From Candidatus Staskawiczbacteria bacterium (lineage in GTDB: Bacteria; Patescibacteriota; Minisyncoccia; Minisyncoccales; Staskawiczbacteraceae): DNA of 64,000 bases. Positions within the stretch are counted from its first letter, which is position 1, and each line of letters opens with the position of its first letter. Location of the stretch: the NCBI GenBank assembly GCA_016196125.1, contig JACPYG010000015.1:22966-86965 (forward strand). The letters run 5' to 3'. A program made the position numbers and the translations under genes. Of this stretch, positions 2,060 through 57,847 are shown one piece after another. The notes below the pieces were generated by a model that made no database searches, had not been told where the DNA came from, and saw only the letters and a program-made list of their open reading frames with translations.

Positions 2060-2065
2060 TGGATT

Positions 2066-2144
2066 AAGTGTACCCCGTTAGAAAATTTTTTCAAGTACTC
2101 AATAATAACAATAATCTCTTAAAATTTTCTAACGGGGTGTACTT
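2066..2144. repeat. Inverted repeat CCCCGTTAGAAAATTTT / AAAATTTTCTAACGGGG (17 bp perfect, 31-nt spacer) immediately upstream of the ftsZ start
   Basis: 2073-2089 is the exact reverse complement of 2121-2137. The same CCCCGTTAGA motif flanks tRNA-Thr and recurs near 8425, 55415 and 58931. Confidence 0.8.
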
Positions 2145-2160
2145 ATTTAAAGTAGTTTGT

Positions 2161-6268: not shown

Positions 6269-6315
6269 GAATCTGTTTTTACATATTTTTTATTTGAGCA
6301 AAGCTTCCATAACTT

Positions 6316-6390
6316 TGGTGGGCCCAGAAGGAATCGGACCTTCTACCTCTGTCTTATCAGGACAGCGTTCTACCAATGAACTATGGGCCC
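6316..6390 (-). tRNA. tRNA-Ile (anticodon GAU), CCA encoded
   Basis: Manual cloverleaf: GGGCCCA TA GTTC ATTGGTA GAAC G CTGTC CTGATAA GACAG AGGTA GAAGG TCCGATT CCTTC TGGGCCC A CCA. Leader and trailer form a further 12-bp perfect helix (6308-6319 / 6391-6402). Confidence 0.9.
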
Positions 6391-6405
6391 ACCAAAGTTA
6401 TGTTG

Positions 6406-15300: not shown

Positions 15301-15426
15301 ATTATATTATTAATTCAATTTATCATAATTTTTAAAACAAAAAAAGACCCCTGGATAAAAATAAGGTTTTATAGTTTTTGAACCAGTGGTCGGATTTGAA
15401 TCGACTACCGGATTTTATCCCGTTAG

Positions 15427-15498
15427 AGCCGGAGGCGAGATTCGAACTCGCGACTTACTCTTTACGAAAGAGTTACTCTGCCTCTGAGTTACTCCGGC
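15427..15498 (-). tRNA. tRNA-Thr (anticodon CGU), no encoded CCA
   Basis: Manual cloverleaf: GCCGGAG TA ACTC AGAGGCA GAGT A ACTCT TTCGTAA AGAGT AAGTC GCGAG TTCGAAT CTCGC CTCCGGC T. Flanked by CCCGTTAGA / TCTAACGGG, which extends the acceptor helix. Confidence 0.85.
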
Positions 15499-15664
15499 TC
15501 TAACGGGGCAAGTGAAAAAGTTGCTCCCTGTCTACCGACAGGCAGGCGCCTATGAGATGCACTGGCACATAATGACTGCTTCTTTATTCCAATACTATCA
15601 CTGGAAACAGCAAAAATCAATTAGAAAATAATTACCCCACTCCTCAACTAACTATTGTTTTGCG

Positions 15665-24256: not shown

Positions 24257-25252
24257 TTACATCTCCATTAATAATATTTCTAAAGCCAGCTTTGGATTGG
24301 CATTAGTCAAAGAAATTTGCGCATTAATAATTTCCAATAATTTTAAAACTTCTTTAATTTTTGATATGGAATAATTCTTAAAATTATCTGCAGCTTCCGG
24401 AAAAAAATCTTTGGGAGTTAAATTATCCGCTCCTGTTTTTAAAAATAATAAATGCCTCAAATATCTTTGCAAAATTTCTAAAACTCTCTTTGTATTATTG
24501 CCATCCAAATTAATTTTTTTTGTGTATTGAAACTTCAGGGCAAGATTAGAATTAATAACTTTTACCAGTTCTTGCAGTGTTGTTTGCTCTTCTTTCAATT
24601 TATCCGGATTTAAAAATAATTCTATTGCTTGGCCTGGTTTACAGGAACAAAAAGATGCAAGATCATGCGCTATTTTTTCTTGCCTGCCGGCAGGCAGACT
24701 TTCTCCCATTTTTACCAAATTATATTCAATTTCTTTCGGGTCTACAAGATAAAATTTTATTCTTTGACACCTTGAAATTATCGTAGACAATAATGTTTCT
24801 GGATGCGGAGATATTAAAATTAAAATAGTTTTTCCTTTTGGCTCCTCAAGTGTTTTTAAAAGGCAACTCTGCGCCTCAAAATTCATTTTTTCAGCTCCAT
24901 TGACAATGACTGCCTTAAAAGAACCGTAATAAGATTTATAGCTTAAAAAAAGCAAAGCCTCTCTTATTTGTGAAATATCAATTTCCTGTTTATCATTTTT
25001 CAGGTTTACCATTAAAACATCAACATAGCTTTCATTTTCTATGTCTTTGCAATTTCTGCAAATTCCGCATGATTCTTGACCGGGGCTTTTGCCTGCCTCG
25101 GCAGACAAACAATTGATTAACTTTACAAATTCTTTTGCCAAAGTTCTCTTACCTATTTTCTCCTCTCCAGAAAACAAATAAGCATGAGCCAACTGGCCTG
25201 ATTCAAGCTTATTCTTTAAAAAATCCCATTGTTTTTTGTGACCGATTAACAT
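24257..25252 (-). CDS. holB: DNA polymerase III delta' subunit
   Basis: HAYLFSGEEKIGKRTLA, Cys cluster C..C..C and LLKTLEEP motifs. Confidence 0.85.
   Translation of the reverse strand: MLIGHKKQWDFLKNKLESGQLAHAYLFSGEEKIGKRTLAKEFVKLINCLSAEAGKSPGQESCGICRNCKDIENESYVDVLMVNLKNDKQEIDISQIREALLFLSYKSYYGSFKAVIVNGAEKMNFEAQSCLLKTLEEPKGKTILILISPHPETLLSTIISRCQRIKFYLVDPKEIEYNLVKMGESLPAGRQEKIAHDLASFCSCKPGQAIELFLNPDKLKEEQTTLQELVKVINSNLALKFQYTKKINLDGNNTKRVLEILQRYLRHLLFLKTGADNLTPKDFFPEAADNFKNYSISKIKEVLKLLEIINAQISLTNANPKLALEILLMEM
24681..24696. repeat. GC palindrome TGCCTGCCGGCAGGCA in frame in holB (SLPAGRQEK)
   Basis: Perfect 16-bp palindrome inside AT-rich coding sequence. Confidence 0.9.
25090..25107. repeat. 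Degenerate copy TGCCTGCCTCGGCAGACA in holB (LSAEAGKS)
   Basis: Same half-sites with a 2-nt centre insertion and one arm change. Confidence 0.5.
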
Positions 25253-34712: not shown

Positions 34713-36386
34713 CTATTTTAATATTGCTTTAATTCTTCTGATGCCTGAACCTAAAGATTCTTCTTTTATAATTTTAAATGGTCCCCGCCCAGATTCTGGG
34801 CGAGGCTCGCCCACTTTTGAGTGGGCGGCTAACTCATCAGTGCTGTTAACATGGGAGCCTCCGCAGAATTCTTTGCTAAAAACATTCCCCTTTTTATCTT
34901 GTATAAAATATACCGATACCGTATTACCGTATTTTACACCAAATTCCATTTCTGCGCCAATTTTTTGGGCTTCTTCTTTTGGCATTTCTCTTTTTACCAC
35001 CAAAAACCCTTCTTTGATTTTTTCATTTACAATATCTTCAACTTTCTTTTTTTCTTCATCGGTAAGTTTCCTGTCAAAAGAAAAATCAATCCTCAAACGC
35101 TCTGAAGTTATATTGCTACCCCTTTGTTTTATTGTTTTTCCAAAAACTTCCTGCAAAGCGGCTAAAAGCAAATGATGAGCAGTATGCAATTTTATAGTTT
35201 CTGGCTTATCATCGGCCAATCCTCCCTTAAACATACCGGCCGAAGCAGTTTTGGACAATTCTTGATGTTTCTTTAATTCTTTATTAAATTCTTTTTCGTT
35301 AATATTTGGAAAAAATTCCTTAATAATATCATAGGGCAGGCCATAACTTTGGTATAACAGAAAAGTTGATTTTATGTCTGCATTTTTCACTTTCCCAGAT
35401 TCTGCAATACCTCTTTCTAATGTCTCCAGAAACTTCTTTTTTTCGCTATCAAACTCTGTATCTATAATACTCCATCGTAATTTATAATCATCTCCAATTT
35501 TTCTTATTAATTTTTCAAAAAAACTTACTTTACTAATAAATTCATAAGCCACTATTCGTCTAATTAATCTTCTTAATATATAACCTTGTTCCTTGTTTGA
35601 TGGCTTTACCCCATCAGAAATTAAAAATGAAATAGCTCTTGCATGGTCGGCAATGATTCTTTTCTTTCTCTCATCAAATTCTTCGGGAATTAATTTAATG
35701 ATCGGCTCAAACAAATCAGTTTCAAAAACAGTCTCTTTTTTTTGAACTACCATTGCCAATCTTTCCAAACCCATTCCGGTATCAACTCCAGGAGTTTCCA
35801 GTTTAGTTAATTTTTTATTTTTATCGCAAAAAAATTCATTAAAAACTATGTTCCATATTTCAATGCCGGAAACATAAATTTCGGTTGTAGGCCCGCAAGG
35901 CCCTTCTTCGCCTGTCGGTCCCCAAAAGTTATCAATTCCTTCTCTTTTTATTTTAATTTTAAGGTCTATCTCTTTCCAAATTTTTTCTGATTTCTCATCA
36001 GGAGGAACATTTTTGTCTCCCTTAAAAACAGTTACATAATCAATTTTCAATCCCAGTTCTTTTACAATAAATTCATGCGCCAATTTTATGGCTTCTTCCT
36101 TGAAATATCCGCCGAAAGAAAAGTTTCCCAACATTTCAAAAAAGGTCAAATGCCTCTCGTCTCCCACTTCATCAATATCCGATGTTCTTATGCATTTTTG
36201 GCAAGAAACGACATTTTTACCATAGGGAGATTCCTCGCCCAAATAATATGGCTTAAACTGCTGCATTCCGGCAGTAGTGAATAAAACAGATGAATCCGAT
36301 GGCAATAAAGACGAAGAAGGCACTATTTTGTGCCCATTTTTTTTAAAAAATTGTAAAAATTTTTGTCGTAATTCGTCTGATTGCAT
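34713..36386 (-). CDS. alaS: Alanyl-tRNA synthetase, minimal 557-aa form (catalytic plus editing core, no C-Ala domain)
   Basis: N-terminal FLQFFKKNGHKIVPSSSLLP, editing HTAHHLL and CGGSHV motifs. The protein ends shortly after GIRRIKA. Confidence 0.9.
   Translation of the reverse strand: MQSDELRQKFLQFFKKNGHKIVPSSSLLPSDSSVLFTTAGMQQFKPYYLGEESPYGKNVVSCQKCIRTSDIDEVGDERHLTFFEMLGNFSFGGYFKEEAIKLAHEFIVKELGLKIDYVTVFKGDKNVPPDEKSEKIWKEIDLKIKIKREGIDNFWGPTGEEGPCGPTTEIYVSGIEIWNIVFNEFFCDKNKKLTKLETPGVDTGMGLERLAMVVQKKETVFETDLFEPIIKLIPEEFDERKKRIIADHARAISFLISDGVKPSNKEQGYILRRLIRRIVAYEFISKVSFFEKLIRKIGDDYKLRWSIIDTEFDSEKKKFLETLERGIAESGKVKNADIKSTFLLYQSYGLPYDIIKEFFPNINEKEFNKELKKHQELSKTASAGMFKGGLADDKPETIKLHTAHHLLLAALQEVFGKTIKQRGSNITSERLRIDFSFDRKLTDEEKKKVEDIVNEKIKEGFLVVKREMPKEEAQKIGAEMEFGVKYGNTVSVYFIQDKKGNVFSKEFCGGSHVNSTDELAAHSKVGEPRPESGRGPFKIIKEESLGSGIRRIKAILK
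34781..34830. repeat. GC double-hairpin element in frame in alaS (AAHSKVGEPRPESGRG)
   Basis: GTCCCCGCCCAGATTCTGGGCGAGGCTCGCCCACTTTTGAGTGGGCGGCT; shares about 32 nt with 41671-41723 in rplR. Confidence 0.85.
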
Positions 36387-36928: not shown

Positions 36929-37687
36929 TTATGCAACAGATTTAACAATTTTTAGAAATTTTTCTGCGTAAAGCGAAGCCCCGCCGACTAAAAGCCCGTT
37001 AGCCCCGGTATTTTTAATATAGAGAGCCGAGTTGTCTGAATCTACGCTGCCGCCATAAAGAACTTTCATATTATCGGCTATTTTTCTATTATACAATTTT
37101 AAAACAACTCTTCGTATAAATAAAATAGAACTCATCGTTTCGTCTTGTGAACAATTATTTCCGGACCCAATTGCCCAAATTGGCTCATAAGCAATAACAA
37201 TATTTTTTACTTCTTTTACGATAATGCCTTTTAAATCTTCTGTAATTTGCCTTTCTAAAACTTCAACTTTTTTGCCTGTCTTTTTTTCCTCATTAGTTTC
37301 ACCTATGCACAAAATCGGTTTTAATTTTTCGTGCAAGCATTCTTTTATTTTTTTATTGATAACGGTGTCTGTTTCGTTTAAATATTTTCTGGACTCTGAA
37401 TGGCCTATTATAACATATTTTACTTTTGAATCACGAAGCTGTGAAGCTGAAACCTCTCCGGTAAACGCGCCTTTTCCCCTTACCTGCCTGCCGGCAGGCA
37501 GGTAAAAAACATTCTGGGCGCCCAAAGTCAATCCTTCCAATAAGTTCAAATAAACAAAAGGCGGGCATATAACAACTTCAACCTTCTTTTCATTTTTTAA
37601 CCCTTTTTTTATTGCTTCAAAAAGAGCTTTGGCTTCTTTTTGATTGGCAGGATTCATTTTCCAGTTGGCAACAATAAGATTTTTCAT
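36929..37687 (-). CDS. tpiA: Triosephosphate isomerase
   Basis: ANWKMN, GAFTGEVS, IIGHSESR, AYEPIWAIGSG, GGASL. Confidence 0.95.
   Translation of the reverse strand: MKNLIVANWKMNPANQKEAKALFEAIKKGLKNEKKVEVVICPPFVYLNLLEGLTLGAQNVFYLPAGRQVRGKGAFTGEVSASQLRDSKVKYVIIGHSESRKYLNETDTVINKKIKECLHEKLKPILCIGETNEEKKTGKKVEVLERQITEDLKGIIVKEVKNIVIAYEPIWAIGSGNNCSQDETMSSILFIRRVVLKLYNRKIADNMKVLYGGSVDSDNSALYIKNTGANGLLVGGASLYAEKFLKIVKSVA
37482..37503. repeat. Perfect 22-bp palindrome ACCTGCCTGCCGGCAGGCAGGT in frame in tpiA (YLPAGRQV)
   Basis: Read directly from the sequence; the two halves are exact reverse complements. Confidence 0.95.
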
Positions 37688-41499: not shown

Positions 41500-41910
41500 T
41501 TAAAATTTTAATCCTCCTTCTCTGGCTCCATCGGCCAATGCTTTTACTCTGCCATGAAAAACAATTCCCCCTCTGTCAAAAACAATTTTTTCTATATTTT
41601 GAGCTTCCGCCTTTTTAGCAATTAACCTACCCACCATAAATGCAGATAATACTTTGCTGGTCATTTTTTCATCCCGCCCAAATTCATTTGGGCGAGGCTC
41701 GCCCGCCTTTTTAGGCGAGGCGGCTTTTCCAATTTTTATTTCTTTATCAAAAGCAGAAACCAAAACTTTGGCAGTATCATCATTAATTAACTGAGCATAA
41801 ATATGAGATAAAGACCTAAAAACGCAGAGACGTGGCCTGTCTTTTGTGCCATGGCATTTTATTCTTATTTTTTTATGGCGCCTTATGCGTTTTAACTTTT
41901 TTGGTAACAT
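41500..41910 (-). CDS. rplR: 50S ribosomal protein L18 (136 aa, carries an internal GC-element insertion)
   Basis: [18 protein letters not shown] ... [27 protein letters not shown]. Confidence 0.95.
41671..41723. repeat. GC double-hairpin element in frame in rplR ([18 protein letters not shown])
   Basis: ATCCCGCCCAAATTCATTTGGGCGAGGCTCGCCCGCCTTTTTAGGCGAGGCGGCT. Confidence 0.85.
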
Positions 41911-42469: not shown

Positions 42470-42494
42470 AAAATTGTATTTATTTTTGGTTATA

Positions 42495-42610
42495 GCGGAA
42501 ATAAGGATATTTTTCAATTCGGGCTCGGGTCGCGAGAGCTTCCCGCTGTGCGGGAGCTCCCGACATAGGCCGTGGGTTTGGCGGGCGTTGAAAAATATCC
42601 TTATTTCCGC
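42495..42610. repeat. MITE-like hairpin element, 116-bp form with a nested 43-nt palindrome (rpsH-rplF spacer)
   Basis: 23-bp perfect arms GCGGAAATAAGGATATTTTTCAA / TTGAAAAATATCCTTATTTCCGC. Core TTCGGGCT[43 nt]GCCGTGGGTTTGGCGGGCG. Confidence 0.9.
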
Positions 42611-42619
42611 TTAATACTA

Positions 42620-43851: not shown

Positions 43852-43870
43852 ATTTTATAATCTCTTTTTT

Positions 43871-43944
43871 GCGGAAATAAGGATATTTTTCAATTCGGGC
43901 TGGCCGTGGGTTTGGCGGGCGTTGAAAAATATCCTTATTTCCGC
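43871..43944. repeat. MITE-like hairpin element, minimal 74-bp form (rplX-rplE spacer)
   Basis: Same 23-bp arms as 42495-42610; core TTCGGGCTGGCCGTGGGTTTGGCGGGCG without any nested palindrome. Confidence 0.9.
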
Positions 43945-43954
43945 ATAGATAACT

Positions 43955-47146: not shown

Positions 47147-47970
47147 AACTTATTTGTCCACTTTTTTGTATTTCTTGTTTTTACCCCCAAGGCTGGTTTT
47201 CCCCATGGAGTTTTTGGATGTTTTAAACCAATTGGCTGTCTGCCCTCTCCTCCTCCATGCGGATGGTCAACTGGATTCATAGCCGAACCCCTAACATGAG
47301 GCCTTCTCCCTTTTAATCTTGATTTACCTGCCTTACCAACCCTATAATATCTGTTTTCTGGATTTGAAACCATTCCTATGGAAGCAAAGCACTCGCTTAT
47401 AAATTTTCTTACTTCGGTTGACGGCATTTTCAGGTTAACGTAATTTCCCTCCTGAGCTAAAACCTGAGCCGAAGATCCTGCAGATCTTACTAACTTTCCT
47501 CCTTTGCCAGGCTCTAATTCAATATTATAAACCATTGTTCCAACCGTTATATTTTTTAACTTTACTCTATTTCCTGGTTTTAAAGGAGCTTTCTCGGAAA
47601 ATATAATCTCATCTCCAACTTTCAGGTCTTGTGGCGCAATAATATATTGCCTATATTTGCTATGCCTGCCGGCAGGCATGCCTAAATATTCTATCAGAGC
47701 GATAAAGGCCGTTCTGTTTGGATCATATTCCAAAGCAACAACTCGGGCTGGCGAATCTATTCTTGTTTGTGAAAATTCAATCATTCTATAAAGTTTTTTT
47801 ACTCCGCCTCCTTTGTGTCTTACCGTAATCCTGCCAGAAGACTTCGATCTGCCAACATGTCTTTTTATATTTGCCAAAAGACTCTTTTCTGATTTATCTT
47901 TTGAAAGCAATGAAAAATCGATTCCTGTCATTCCTCTTCTGCCTGACGTTGTTGGTTTATAATGTTTCAT
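47122..47970 (-). CDS. rplB: 50S ribosomal protein L2
   Basis: EYDPNRTAFIAL ... GSAMNPVDHPHGGGEGR. Confidence 0.95.
   Translation of the reverse strand: MKHYKPTTSGRRGMTGIDFSLLSKDKSEKSLLANIKRHVGRSKSSGRITVRHKGGGVKKLYRMIEFSQTRIDSPARVVALEYDPNRTAFIALIEYLGMPAGRHSKYRQYIIAPQDLKVGDEIIFSEKAPLKPGNRVKLKNITVGTMVYNIELEPGKGGKLVRSAGSSAQVLAQEGNYVNLKMPSTEVRKFISECFASIGMVSNPENRYYRVGKAGKSRLKGRRPHVRGSAMNPVDHPHGGGEGRQPIGLKHPKTPWGKPALGVKTRNTKKWTNKFIIQRRKK
47662..47679. repeat. Perfect 18-bp palindrome ATGCCTGCCGGCAGGCAT in frame in rplB (GMPAGRHS)
   Basis: Read directly from the sequence. Confidence 0.95.
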
Positions 47971-50146: not shown

Positions 50147-50208
50147 ATTCTTTCCTTCTTCTAGAAGAATATTTGCTTTAATACCCGTTTCTTTAGATGG
50201 CTTTTTTA

Positions 50209-50230
50209 CTGCCTGCCTGCCGGCAGGCAT
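50209..50230. repeat. GC palindrome CTGCCTGCCTGCCGGCAGGCAT in the tuf-rpsJ leader (or the rpsJ N-extension)
   Basis: The core TGCCTGCCGGCAGGCA at 50214-50229 is a perfect palindrome. Confidence 0.9.
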
Positions 50231-50301
50231 TGCTTTCTTTCGAATTGCTGGTTTCTTGACTGGCATCTTATGATTTTATGAACGAAGTGAATAATATCAT
50301 G

Positions 50302-55391: not shown

Positions 55392-55517
55392 TATTTAATA
55401 CTAACACGTATTGACCCCGTTAGAAATAGCCAATCTTAAAAATACTTAAATAACGTTATTATGGACGTGATTTTTAACGGAGTTGAAAAAAATAAAAGAA
55501 AGTGTTAGAATGCACCA

Positions 55518-55615
55518 AAGTGGAAATAATAATATTTTTCAACGTCCGCCCTGCCTGCCGGCAGGCAGGCAAACCCACGGCCAGCCCGAATTGAAAAATA
55601 TTATTATTTCCACTT
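55518..55615. repeat. MITE-like hairpin element with the nested 20-bp palindrome (upstream of rpmB)
   Basis: 25-bp perfect arms AAGTGGAAATAATAATATTTTTCAA / TTGAAAAATATTATTATTTCCACTT. Core CGTCCGCC CCTGCCTGCCGGCAGGCAGG CAAACCCACGGCCAGCCCGAA. Confidence 0.9.
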
Positions 55616-55625
55616 GTATAATTTT

Positions 55626-55811
55626 ATGGAAAAAATTTGTTCAATTTGTAAAAAAAAATCAGGAATGTCATGGTCTCTCATAAAACTGAGGGGTAAATAT
55701 AATCCTACTCAAAAAATAAGAAAGCGCCCAAATTTACAATGGGTTCGTTTATTTTCGGGCAAAAGAGTTCTCGCCTGCGCCAAGTGCATAAAAGCAATGG
55801 CGAAAGTATAA
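55626..55811 (+). CDS. rpmB: 50S ribosomal protein L28 (Cys-containing form)
   Basis: MEKICSICKKKSGMSWSLIKLRGKYNPTQKIRKRPNLQWVRLFSGKRVLACAKCIK. ATG at 55626; the ORF track starts at an upstream TTG. Confidence 0.85.
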   Translation: MEKICSICKKKSGMSWSLIKLRGKYNPTQKIRKRPNLQWVRLFSGKRVLACAKCIKAMAKV

Positions 55812-55814
55812 ATT

Positions 55815-56195
55815 TCAAACAATGTTTTCATAGTGATTTAAACGCTTAACACTATAATCGGAATTCAAAACAATACATATGGCATCTATCCTTAAAGCGC
55901 CATTCCATTTTTTAAAAGCCGTGTAAGCCAAAGCGTTTCCTGTGAGTTTTCTCATTTTCTTTTTATTAATTGTTTCTTCCGGTGTTCCAAAATTATCTCC
56001 TACTTTTGTTCTTACTTCAACAAAAACCAAATCTATTTTTCCTGCCCTGAGCCTGCCGAAGGGTTTTTTGGCAATTAAATCTATTTCAGCATATTTTGTT
56101 TTATAATTTTGTTCTATTATTTTATAACCTTGTTTTATCAAAAATCTCTTGGCAATCTCTTCCCCTATTTTTCCGACTTCGTTATGCTGACTCAT
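55815..56195 (-). CDS. yraN: YraN family (UPF0102) endonuclease-like protein
   Basis: GEEIAKRFLIKQGYKIIEQNYKTKYAEIDLIA...LVFVEVRTK. Confidence 0.8.
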   Translation of the reverse strand: MSQHNEVGKIGEEIAKRFLIKQGYKIIEQNYKTKYAEIDLIAKKPFGRLRAGKIDLVFVEVRTKVGDNFGTPEETINKKKMRKLTGNALAYTAFKKWNGALRIDAICIVLNSDYSVKRLNHYENIV

Positions 56196-56206
56196 AGCTA
56201 TGATAA

Positions 56207-56306
56207 GGTCAGAAAATAAAAATATTTTTCAACGCCCGCCCTGCCTGCCGGCAGGCAGGCAAACCCACGACCAGCCCGAATTGAAAAATATTTTTATTTT
56301 CTGACC
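56207..56306. repeat. MITE-like hairpin element with the nested 20-bp palindrome (yraN-comM spacer)
   Basis: 26-bp perfect arms GGTCAGAAAATAAAAATATTTTTCAA / TTGAAAAATATTTTTATTTTCTGACC. Core identical to 55543-55590 except for 2 nt. Confidence 0.9.
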
Positions 56307-56311
56307 TAAAT

Positions 56312-57847
56312 TTACACAGTATCATAAATTTTAGGCTTATACTGCAATGCCTCTGCCATATGGGAAATAGTTATTTCTTCTGCCCCATCCAAATCGGCGA
56401 TTGTTCTGGCAACTTTTATTGTTTTCATATAAGACCTGGCTGAAAGCTGGAATTTTAAACTTGCTGTTCGCAAAATCCCTTCTATATCTTTTGTCAGTTT
56501 GCAGTATTTCTTAATGTGGCTATTTTTCATTTGGGCGTTTGACTGAATTGAATCTTTTATAAAACGCTCCTCCTGTTTTTCTTTGGCTAAAACAACTCTT
56601 TGTTTGATTATTTTTGATGACTCTAATAGTTCGGAATTTTTCTGATTATCTGAAAACTCTGCCGTATCAACCGGCAAAATGGCGATATGCAAATCAATTC
56701 TGTCTAAGATAGGGCCAGAAATTCTTTTTTGATATTTTTTAATCTGGTTTTGCGTGCAAACACAATTTTTCTTGGGATGATTTAAATAACCGCAAGGACA
56801 AGGGTTTGCCGAAGCCACCAACATAAAATCGGCCGGATATATTACTCTTTGTTTACTTCTTGAAATAGTTAAATATCCATCTTCCAAAGGCTGCCTCATT
56901 GCTTCCATAACATTGTGGGGAAATTCATTAAACTCATCCAGAAAAAGAACACCTCTGTGGGCTAAACTTATTTCGCCAGGATGCGGTTTTGCTCCGCCTC
57001 CGACAAGACCAACTAACGAGGCCGAATGATGAGGCGCCCTGAATTGCCTCTCCGTTATCAGCGAACCGCCTGGCGGGATGCTTCCTGCCACTGAATATAT
57101 TTTAGTTACTTCCAACGACTCTGTTTCATTTAATGGAGGCAATATGCCTGGCAGAGCCCGGGCCAACATAGTTTTTCCCGAACCGGGAGAACCCACCATA
57201 ATAATATTGTGGCCTCCGGCTGCCGCAATTTCCATTGCTCTCTTTGCCTGTTCCTGTCCTAAAACTTCTCTCATGTCAAATTCGGCTGACGAGGGCAGGC
57301 CGCTTAAAATTTTCTGATAAACAACCGGTTCAATATTTCTTTTTTTTAAAAAATATCCTGCTATCTGGATCAAATTTTCAACAGGAAAAACTTTTACCCC
57401 TTTTACTACTCCGGCTTCATTGGCTGAATCCTTGGGAACAAAAAGGTTTGAAAATCCAAATTCTTTGGCAAAAAGAGCCATTAAAAGAGCTCCTTTTGTA
57501 TGCCGAAGAGAACCGTCAAACGATAACTCCCCTAAAAATAATGATTTTTCTGGTATGGGAAACTGCAATACACTGCTCAAAATTCCAACAGCAATGGGTA
57601 AATCATAAAGAGAACCTTCTTTTTGAATATCGGCCGGAGCTAAATTGACTGTGATTTTTTTTGCCGGAAAATCAACTCCCGAACTTGAAATTGCCGCCCT
57701 GACCCTTTCTTTGCTTTCGTCAACCGCCTTGTCTGGCAATCCAACAATTTCAAAACCGGGCAATCCTCTGTTTGCCAAATTTACTTCCACATCCACCTTT
57801 ATTGTTTCAAGGCCCAAATTTACAACAGAAGGCACTTTAATTAACAT
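56312..57847 (-). CDS. comM: Mg-chelatase-like AAA+ protein ComM/YifB
   Basis: GSPGSGKTMLA, VLFLDEFNEF, 511 aa. Confidence 0.9.
   Translation of the reverse strand: MLIKVPSVVNLGLETIKVDVEVNLANRGLPGFEIVGLPDKAVDESKERVRAAISSSGVDFPAKKITVNLAPADIQKEGSLYDLPIAVGILSSVLQFPIPEKSLFLGELSFDGSLRHTKGALLMALFAKEFGFSNLFVPKDSANEAGVVKGVKVFPVENLIQIAGYFLKKRNIEPVVYQKILSGLPSSAEFDMREVLGQEQAKRAMEIAAAGGHNIIMVGSPGSGKTMLARALPGILPPLNETESLEVTKIYSVAGSIPPGGSLITERQFRAPHHSASLVGLVGGGAKPHPGEISLAHRGVLFLDEFNEFPHNVMEAMRQPLEDGYLTISRSKQRVIYPADFMLVASANPCPCGYLNHPKKNCVCTQNQIKKYQKRISGPILDRIDLHIAILPVDTAEFSDNQKNSELLESSKIIKQRVVLAKEKQEERFIKDSIQSNAQMKNSHIKKYCKLTKDIEGILRTASLKFQLSARSYMKTIKVARTIADLDGAEEITISHMAEALQYKPKIYDTV

Follow-up and report, generated by a model that had tools for sequence, protein, structure and literature searches.

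The window considered here is a stretch of 64,000 nucleotides from contig JACPYG010000015.1 (positions 22,966 to 86,965), assigned to Candidatus Staskawiczbacteria bacterium. It contains four copies, designated A to D, of a hairpin element in which two long complementary arms enclose a conserved core; two of these copies, C and D, lie on either side of a short segment with yraN and a probable rpmB gene. According to the reading favoured here, C and D belong to a repeat restricted to Patescibacteria, the arms of which are kept complementary mainly by copying at the level of DNA, i.e., by template switching; the probability of this reading is put at about 0.55. The family itself is best read as a small palindromic repeat element that resembles repetitive extragenic palindromes (REPs) and miniature transposable elements with inverted repeats (MITEs) and is yet distinct from them. 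It is apparently undescribed, and a search of the published literature by sequence and by topic returned nothing on it.

Hairpin copies in the window and in related genomes

Element C (55518–55615, core on the minus strand) is formed by 100% complementary arms of 25 nt (55518–55542 and 55591–55615) enclosing a loop of 48 nt (55543–55590). Element D (56206–56307, core on the minus strand) is formed by 100% complementary arms of 27 nt (56206–56232 and 56281–56307) and also encloses 48 nt (56233–56280). Both are found by a covariance model built from the family (74.1 and 68.7 bits, respectively), in agreement with the preliminary description of this locus, which had placed these perfect inverted repeats in one hairpin family. 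On the minus strand, both loops read TTCGGGCTGG(C/T)CGTGGGTTTG, which is a part of the core (55570–55590 in C, 56260–56280 in D), then the 20-nt palindrome CCTGCCTGCCGGCAGGCAGG, then GCGG(A/G)CG. The palindrome is perfect and strandless and is nested at the same core position in C (55550–55569) and D (56240–56259); its exact insertion into both minus-strand cores had been proposed earlier and is confirmed. Both loops thus contain a heptamer, GCGGACG or GCGGGCG; in C, the palindrome stands between GTGGGTTTG and GCGGACG, and the core of D is a GGTCG variant.

The plain form of the element is represented by A (43870–43945, plus strand, 107.9 bits), which has arms of 24 bp and an uninterrupted core of 28 nt on the plus strand (43894–43921). 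This is the core previously noted near position 43871 as lacking the insert, and it is indeed the same core. In B (42494–42611, plus strand, also matched by the covariance model) the arms are as in A, and the core (42518–42587) is split after TTCGGGCT by a 42-nt GC-rich hairpin (42526–42567). The inner arms ATATTTTTCAA / TTGAAAAATAT are common to all four copies, as had been stated; the arm lengths, given as 23, 25 or 26 bp, are actually 24, 24, 25 and 27 bp for the perfect arms. C and D are separated by 590 bp (55616–56205) and, because both cores are on the minus strand, stand in direct orientation around this segment, which also accords with the earlier account.

The covariance model detects exactly four copies in the 64-kb window, i.e., about one per 16 kb, and a chance origin of these hairpins is excluded. 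The longest perfect inverted repeat did not exceed 15 bp in 30 first-order Markov simulations of the window, versus the four observed repeats of 24–27 bp, and no core match was found in shuffled sequence. The four copies explain eight of the nine occurrences of ATATTTTTCAA / TTGAAAAATAT in the window, with 0.63 expected, and their folding z-scores range from −7 to −11 on either strand. The window has a G+C content of 35%, and the YraN encoded there shares 100% identity with a protein listed at NCBI under the name Candidatus Staskawiczbacteria. The GC skew of the plus strand is uniformly negative over positions 1–64000 (−0.12 to −0.21) and the AT skew is negative too, which fits the location of most genes on the minus strand; despite this uniform skew, the cores of A–D point both ways.

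Relatives of these copies were sought by scanning species-representative genomes with the core pattern (51 matches) and metagenomes with the core (91 further loci, mostly from groundwater), and after removal of duplicates 92 distinct copies with both flanks were available. Loci retrieved from relatives, metagenomes or viral contigs are denoted by L-numbers (L006, L059, L143, etc.). The hairpin-armed matches among genomes are all in AT-rich metagenome-assembled genomes (MAGs) of Patescibacteria, namely Staskawiczbacteria, MAGs labelled Saccharibacteria and unclassified Patescibacteria, and every true copy comes either from such AT-rich MAGs of Patescibacteria or from groundwater metagenomes. 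In GC-rich genomes, matches to the core are devoid of arms and represent chance matches within genes. The core is absent from IMG/VR, and BLAST searches against phage and plasmid records were empty; a phage or plasmid origin was dropped on these grounds.

A second search, guided by inverted repeats with the core ignored, identified most long hairpins in the retrieved loci as members of the family, with variant cores differing at 1–6 of 28 positions. The 28-nt core is conserved but not invariant. Arms were never found without a core, and the element is therefore one unit. It is about 75 nt long and consists of an AT-rich stem of 23–27 bp (consensus GCGGAAATAAGGATATTTTTCAA), the length of which clusters tightly at 23–24 bp, and a GC-rich, non-palindromic core of 28 nt. 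Perfect pairing is not universal across the family: among the 92 copies, the stem has no mismatch in 38, one in 31, two in 20 and three in the remaining 3. At the gathering threshold, Rfam recognizes only four tRNAs in the window and no family matching the hairpins; at relaxed thresholds, only generic long-hairpin (miRNA precursor) matches appear, far below threshold.

Evolution of arms, loops and cores

In the preliminary description, arms that vary between copies and still pair were taken to point to selection or a copying mechanism and not to simple decay, and this holds across the family. The covariation test was performed on the 24-bp helix in an ungapped alignment of 59 independent copies, a subset used since the MAFFT alignment gapped one arm and broke the pairing register. 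In this set, 96.2% of the stem cells are paired versus 85.1% in shuffles, changes on both sides affect 20 of the 24 stem pairs (152 cells), and the covariation score is 0.360 versus 0.055–0.106 in slid-partner controls; none of 500 shuffles reaches any of the observed measures. The arms diverge by 22% between copies, whereas the non-Watson–Crick positions within a copy amount to 7%, and independent arms would give 22.5%. Divergence is unevenly distributed, being 34% in the outer 13 nt and 8.5% in the inner 11 nt. The pattern is one of compensation and not of free decay, and mismatches do not accumulate freely among the 92 copies, as the counts of perfect and single-mismatch stems given above indicate. 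The remaining mismatches cluster at stem positions 11–12, with 36 of 80 at these two positions, and on the mRNA-sense strand they comprise about 30 A·C versus 8 G·U (p = 5e-4).

The arms change on both sides together at true orthologous sites too. At locus D, each arm of the window copy differs from that of L006 at 6 of the 24 innermost positions (8 of 27 when counted by eye) with pairing kept, and the flanks are 86% identical. One compensated pair separates the window from L059 at locus C, and two such pairs separate L052 from L096. The loop can also be inverted. At locus C, the flanks and arms of L059 and L006 align with those of the window base for base, but the window loop is reverse-complemented; at locus D, the window loop is inverted relative to both L006 and L143. 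Flipped loops were found in four of nine diverged same-site pairs. Near-identical contig pairs always agree in loop orientation, on the basis of which population-level phase variation of the loop was rejected; as far as the assemblies show, loop flipping is evolutionary.

Comparison of gene junctions shows that the element is gained and lost as a unit at short transcribed spacers. In L144–L149, which are six loci with three distinct YraN proteins, comM and yraN overlap by 14 nt (ATGAGTCAGCATAA) and no element is present; in the window, L006 and L143, an element occupies this junction. In L143, the overlap sequence stands on both flanks of the element, and comM and yraN are therefore both intact. 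The window and L006 share a diverged left-hand duplicate of the overlap at locus D, ATGATACTGTGTAA, and their D copies therefore derive from one insertion. The junctions rplX|rplE and rpsH|rplF are filled in the window and empty in the orthologue L124, whereas rplN|rplX is filled in L124 and empty in the window. The duplication in L143, which is the sole long one seen, re-creates the overlapping stop and start codons. Long target-site duplication as a general feature was rejected, since the similarity of flanks is 5.78 versus 5.64 in a random-pair control, a comparison that duplications of 2–4 nt would escape.

No arm-like sequence was found at the empty orthologous sites. This disposes of two possible origins of the arms. 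Insertion of the core into a pre-existing locus-specific palindrome was rejected also because no short-loop or loopless arm pair was observed and arm-like sequences always precede a core. Capture of flanking target sequence, which the preliminary description had left as a possible source of the arm differences, was rejected since arms never occur without the core and, moreover, follow one family consensus.

The core varies in a different manner. At the variable position of GCGG[A/G]CG, all 13 copies of MAG CAYHHX and all 5 from Hainich H41 have A, and all 15 copies in Ga0172379 and all 7 in Ga0265296 have G, although the arms of these source-uniform copies differ widely, by 22%. Both variants occur in the window (3 G, 1 A). 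Where different genomes have a copy at the same site, each copy bears the variant of its own genome. This variant differs within all four flipped pairs and agrees within the three unflipped canonical ones; the numbers are small, and the association is what would be expected if cores were replaced by copying from other copies of the element in either orientation. Inserts in the core are confined to two fixed sites. The 42-nt hairpin after TTCGGGYT is present in B of the window, in L081 and in the L006 orthologue of C, with its own compensatory changes, and occupies in L081 and L006 the same core site as in B. The 20-nt palindrome after GTGGGTTTG was found only in C and D of the window among about 120 copies.

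The palindrome CCTGCCTGCCGGCAGGCAGG is also encountered outside the family. In the window, it and near copies of it lie within long open reading frames (ORFs) of 148–555 aa (684–703, 24679–24698, 37483–37502, 47661–47680 and 50208–50231) and are always read in the ...PAGR(Q/H)... frame (LPAGRQ); one of these ORFs resembles, by eye only, ribosomal protein L2. Judged by sequence, these occurrences look like a GC-rich palindromic mini-insert tolerated in frame. The exact 20-mer was detected in 35 IMG/VR viral-contig stretches (L150–L184; e.g., L174, 2239–2330; L170; L156; L158, 8396–8415), mostly of 55–68% G+C. Several of these contigs hold multiple copies, and some copies are flanked by direct repeats of 7–14 nt. 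One viral-contig copy constitutes the long variable arm of a tRNA-Met, and another apparently lies in a tRNA D-loop (L181), where ARAGORN calls no tRNA. Such an occurrence of CCTGCCTGCCGGCAGGCAGG is far above what chance would give for unrelated genomes. Another GC-rich palindrome, GGGCGAGGCTCGCCC, is found twice in the window (34783–34815 and 41687–41710), the second time inside ORF 41500–41910, which is probably rplR by its operon position.

Proposed template switching, gene context and alternative explanations

When template switching takes place between the arms of inverted repeats, the arms become homogenized and the spacer inverted; the process is reversible and favours long arms (PMC8604942). 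Perfect stems and hairpins can also arise and be maintained through it, with one-step compensation (PMC8794818). Arm homogenization together with spacer inversion between orthologues is found in the hairpin family. In the proposed mechanism, the polymerase would switch template between the arms (quasi-palindrome correction), so that one arm would be rewritten in one step as a copy of the other; intermolecular template switching would invert the spacer. Copying between copies, with the conserved inner arms serving as homology in either orientation, would homogenize the cores and could spread variants such as the 20-nt palindrome common to C and D. The element would probably be selfish or nearly neutral. 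Because the element is transcribed, operon mRNAs would contain a duplex of 24 bp, a possible target of RNase III or a possible stabilizer of 3′ ends; such a duplex a few bases past stop codons very likely has some effect.

Gene contexts, obtained with a simple ORF caller and ORFs of at least 80 aa only, show 37 copies between tandem genes with the C-rich core strand in the mRNA and 15 with the G-rich strand, a bias of p = 0.003; 17 copies are located between convergent genes and only 2 of 71 between divergent ones. The median distance is 7 nt from the stop codon to the stem and 21 nt from the stem to the next start codon, and the 3′ end of a gene is within 50 nt for 58 of the 71 copies. In the window, A is placed between rplX (L24) and rplE (L5) and B between rpsH (S8) and rplF (L6); both sites belong to spc, an operon of ribosomal-protein genes with transcription on the minus strand.

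Several points weigh against template switching, among them the simplicity of the ORF calling behind these contexts. Template switching is inferred from its outcomes, i.e., perfect arms and flipped loops; no trans-acting factor or insertion mechanism was identified, and target-site duplication is not a general feature. In three of the four flipped pairs the arms are as unlike as those of random copies, and independent insertion or replacement of the whole element could be responsible. The invariance of the core is partly due to construction because most copies were retrieved with a pattern that fixes it. The orientation bias and the conservation of the core across genera suggest some selection beyond a purely neutral model. 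The asymmetry of the mismatches is a further such point, although the excess of A·C over G·U may be inflated by shared ancestry.

The main rival to DNA-level copying, unlikely but deserving serious attention, is a function at the RNA level. The element would then be a cis-acting hairpin in operon mRNAs, i.e., an RNase III site or a 3′-end stabilizer uncoupling the cistrons, and selection on RNA would keep the pairing. The location of the four window copies in spacers expected to be transcribed (two of them in the spc operon), the short distance past the stop codon (median 7 nt), the proximity of gene 3′ ends (within 50 nt in 58 of 71 cases), the tight stem length of 23–24 bp with a duplex of 22–27 bp, the strong folding of both strands and the orientation bias of 37:15 are consistent with it. 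The terminal repeats of the Neisseria Correia element form hairpins that are cleaved by RNase III. However, selection on RNA predicts that G·U pairs are tolerated and A·C pairs removed on the transcribed strand; the reverse is seen, and DNA-level copying is therefore favoured. Loop orientation is not conserved at orthologous sites, the occupancy of junctions is patchy in close relatives, neither cleavage by RNase III nor blocking of exonucleases needs a conserved 28-nt loop, and the lack of an Rfam family match also speaks against an RNA-level role. A variant of the copying mechanism, speculative and rather doubtful at present, assumes a transposase-free, self-correcting 'hairpin replicator', in which template switching on the 11-nt inner arms would carry the core and its nested inserts, in either orientation, from one hairpin to another and to new spacers. 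If true, one process would give genome-specific core dialects, flipped loops and perfect arms. Operon mRNAs would also be split into C-loop and G-loop classes, whose perfectly complementary 28-nt loops could pair in trans.

It is improbable that the 28-bp core is a DNA recognition site (an uptake signal, a site of HUH/Rep nicking or a nucleoid site) bound as a duplex or as an extruded hairpin, with the arms merely presenting it. This could be suggested by the freedom of the element to flip relative to genes and by the genome-specific dialect of the core, as species dialects are known for uptake sequences. A covarying stem with a conserved loop is typical of substrates of HUH enzymes, a gene for a Y1 transposase is present in relatives, and the competence genes comM and dprA adjoin the locus. 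Known uptake sequences, however, are far denser than about one copy per 16 kb. The window contains neither a Y1 nor an HUH gene, the repeat on either side of the Y1 gene of L144 is a different one (GCGTAACTCCCGGTGTTACGC), the viral, phage and plasmid collections searched yielded no copy, and nested inserts split the core at two sites, the copies apparently not being lost. From the sequence alone, a G-quadruplex or an internal fold of the core and a Chi-like reading of GCTGG(T/C)CG also came into consideration. Ordinary intrinsic (Rho-independent) terminators could explain why copies adjoin gene 3′ ends, and the arms of a minority located in convergent spacers contain runs of A and of T (L002, L039, L065, L093). 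Nevertheless, this explanation is very improbable: terminator-like sites were called at none of the four window copies, the loops are 28–70 nt long without a general T-tract, two copies interrupt the spc operon with the next start codons 18–24 nt away, and the same genomes have conventional terminators with a GC-rich stem, a short loop and a T-tract. The idea that C and D are the ends of a mobile or invertible cassette carrying rpmB and yraN can hardly be maintained. It is prompted by their direct orientation 590 bp apart and by the shared rare nested palindrome. In L144–L149, however, yraN overlaps comM without an element, and on its other side lies a gene for a Y1 transposase, a gene for a TPR protein or an L28-like ORF that follows an ordinary terminator, depending on the locus. 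L143 has an element only between comM and yraN, and rpmB does not adjoin; in L006 each of the two spacers contains an element, with core variants that differ, and the gene order and orientation between them are as in the window. Each spacer is thus filled or empty independently in relatives, C and D occupy two neighbouring spacers independently, and the bracketing of rpmB-yraN, to which the preliminary description had by implication attached meaning, is incidental.

The genes around C and D are arranged as follows. Element C lies between a divergently oriented M50 peptidase gene and a probable rpmB (L28) of divergent sequence and 61 aa (55626–55811, plus strand), the start of which is 10 nt past C. 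The assignment of yraN (UPF0102; 55815–56195, minus strand) to the segment between the copies is well founded (PF02021, E 4e-24), whereas rpmB is only probable: TIGR00009 matches it over the full length with E 4.8e-5 and 23.7 bits versus a cutoff of 48.3, and PF00830 with E 0.0045. Element D lies between the start of yraN, 10 nt away, and the stop, 4 nt away, of a gene for a comM-like ATPase of the Mg-chelatase family (56312–57847, minus strand). A promoter-like site, TTGAAA-17-TAGAAT with an upstream TG (55483–55511, plus strand), identified by consensus match only and conserved in L059 and L006, would start a transcript at approximately the first base of C, and TATAAT is found at 55617–55622 between the stem of C and the ATG of rpmB. 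In view of this TATAAT, joint transcription of C and rpmB is only a possibility. A promoter borne by the element itself, with TTGAAA of the arm as the −35 box, was rejected, as no such promoter was called at the four window copies; in flanks facing gene starts, no fixed-distance −10 box was obvious by eye.

The window yraN also contains a GC-rich in-frame insert (56044–56066); L143 (2634–2651) has CCTGCCTGCGCAGGCAGG at the same codon position, and yraN of L146 and L144 is without a GC-rich insert. The sequence ACCCCGTTAGA recurs in the window (2065–2145, 15419–15429 and 55413–55424) and in L130 (2852–2953); it forms part of the arms in two other long hairpins and also lies upstream of the promoter-like site before C. 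Two tRNA genes (6308–6402 and 15419–15507) are flanked by perfect inverted repeats of 19 and 16 bp, which lengthen the acceptor stem by 9–12 bp and in the first case include the encoded CCA; this may indicate unusual processing of pre-tRNA.

Few descriptions appear to exist of repeat elements in the Candidate Phyla Radiation, and the family presented here is short, easily recognized and widespread in groundwater Patescibacteria. About one hundred related hairpins constitute a natural data set in which stem compensation, loop inversion and concerted evolution of loops can be separated and timed, and which bears directly on the current debate whether it is selection or template switching that preserves long perfect stems. 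Copies in core operons, spc included, may shape mRNA processing in unculturable organisms, and the family is a marker of gene-junction turnover in these genomes. Strong covariation without a conserved strand orientation is also a caution for covariation-based RNA discovery.

Comparison with known repeat systems

Like REPs and bacterial interspersed mosaic elements (BIMEs), the members of the family are short multi-copy extragenic palindromes located in transcribed spacers, near gene 3′ ends and within operons, and show genome-specific sequence dialects. In PMC3733652, REPs are described as having GC-rich stems of 20–40 nt, a GTAG or CGTC head and a stem sequence conserved within a genome. The stem of the hairpin family, in contrast, is AT-rich, 24 bp long, variable by 22% within a genome and covarying, and it is the 28-nt loop that is conserved; the GTAG/CGTC head is absent, the outer arm ending in GCGG, GCAG or GTGG. 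A search of the window by tblastn with the Y1 protein of L144 revealed no gene for a REP-associated tyrosine transposase (RAYT). In L144 (2898–3623), as well as in L145, a RAYT-like Y1-transposase gene adjoins yraN, and a homologue is found in L117 (11643–12323). The L144 gene is bracketed by the palindrome GCGTAACTCCCGGTGTTACGC in a classical REP–RAYT arrangement that is unrelated to the hairpin family; a link between the two was rejected, as the flanking repeat is different and the gene is absent from the window.

MITEs such as the Neisseria Correia element are also non-coding, shorter than 150 bp, intergenic and co-transcribed, end in inverted repeats of about 25 bp and fold into long hairpins in the mRNA. 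Their terminal repeats, however, are the conserved, transposase-bound part, whereas in the hairpin family the outer ends are the least conserved (34% versus 8.5%). Insertion of a MITE makes a short target duplication, which is TA for Correia; in the hairpin family no target duplication was detected, though one of 2–4 nt would escape, and no parent insertion sequence is known. Integron attC sites have imperfect stems with extrahelical bases; in the hairpin family 38 of 92 stems are perfect, and the arm consensus contains no RYYYAAC or GTTRRRY boxes.

A further comparison concerns the GC clusters and hairpin elements of AT-rich organelle genomes and the palindromic elements of Rickettsia. They are likewise GC-rich palindromic mini-elements in an AT-rich reduced genome and are capable of nested insertion and of in-frame insertion into protein genes. 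The hosts and sequences are different, and those elements are GC palindromes, whereas the hairpin family has an AT-rich stem around a non-palindromic core. One published source for this comparison is PMC2800124. Inverted repeats shaped by template switching share with the family arm homogenization with reversible spacer inversion (PMC8604942) and one-step compensatory changes of stems (PMC8794818). The known cases, however, are inverted repeats that are scattered and bear no relation to one another, their spacers being only a few bases long, whereas the hairpin family is dispersed and has a conserved spacer of 28–70 nt, and in it the process would also have to act between copies. With its conserved loop and variable stem, the hairpin family is the inverse of the REP/BIME and MITE families.

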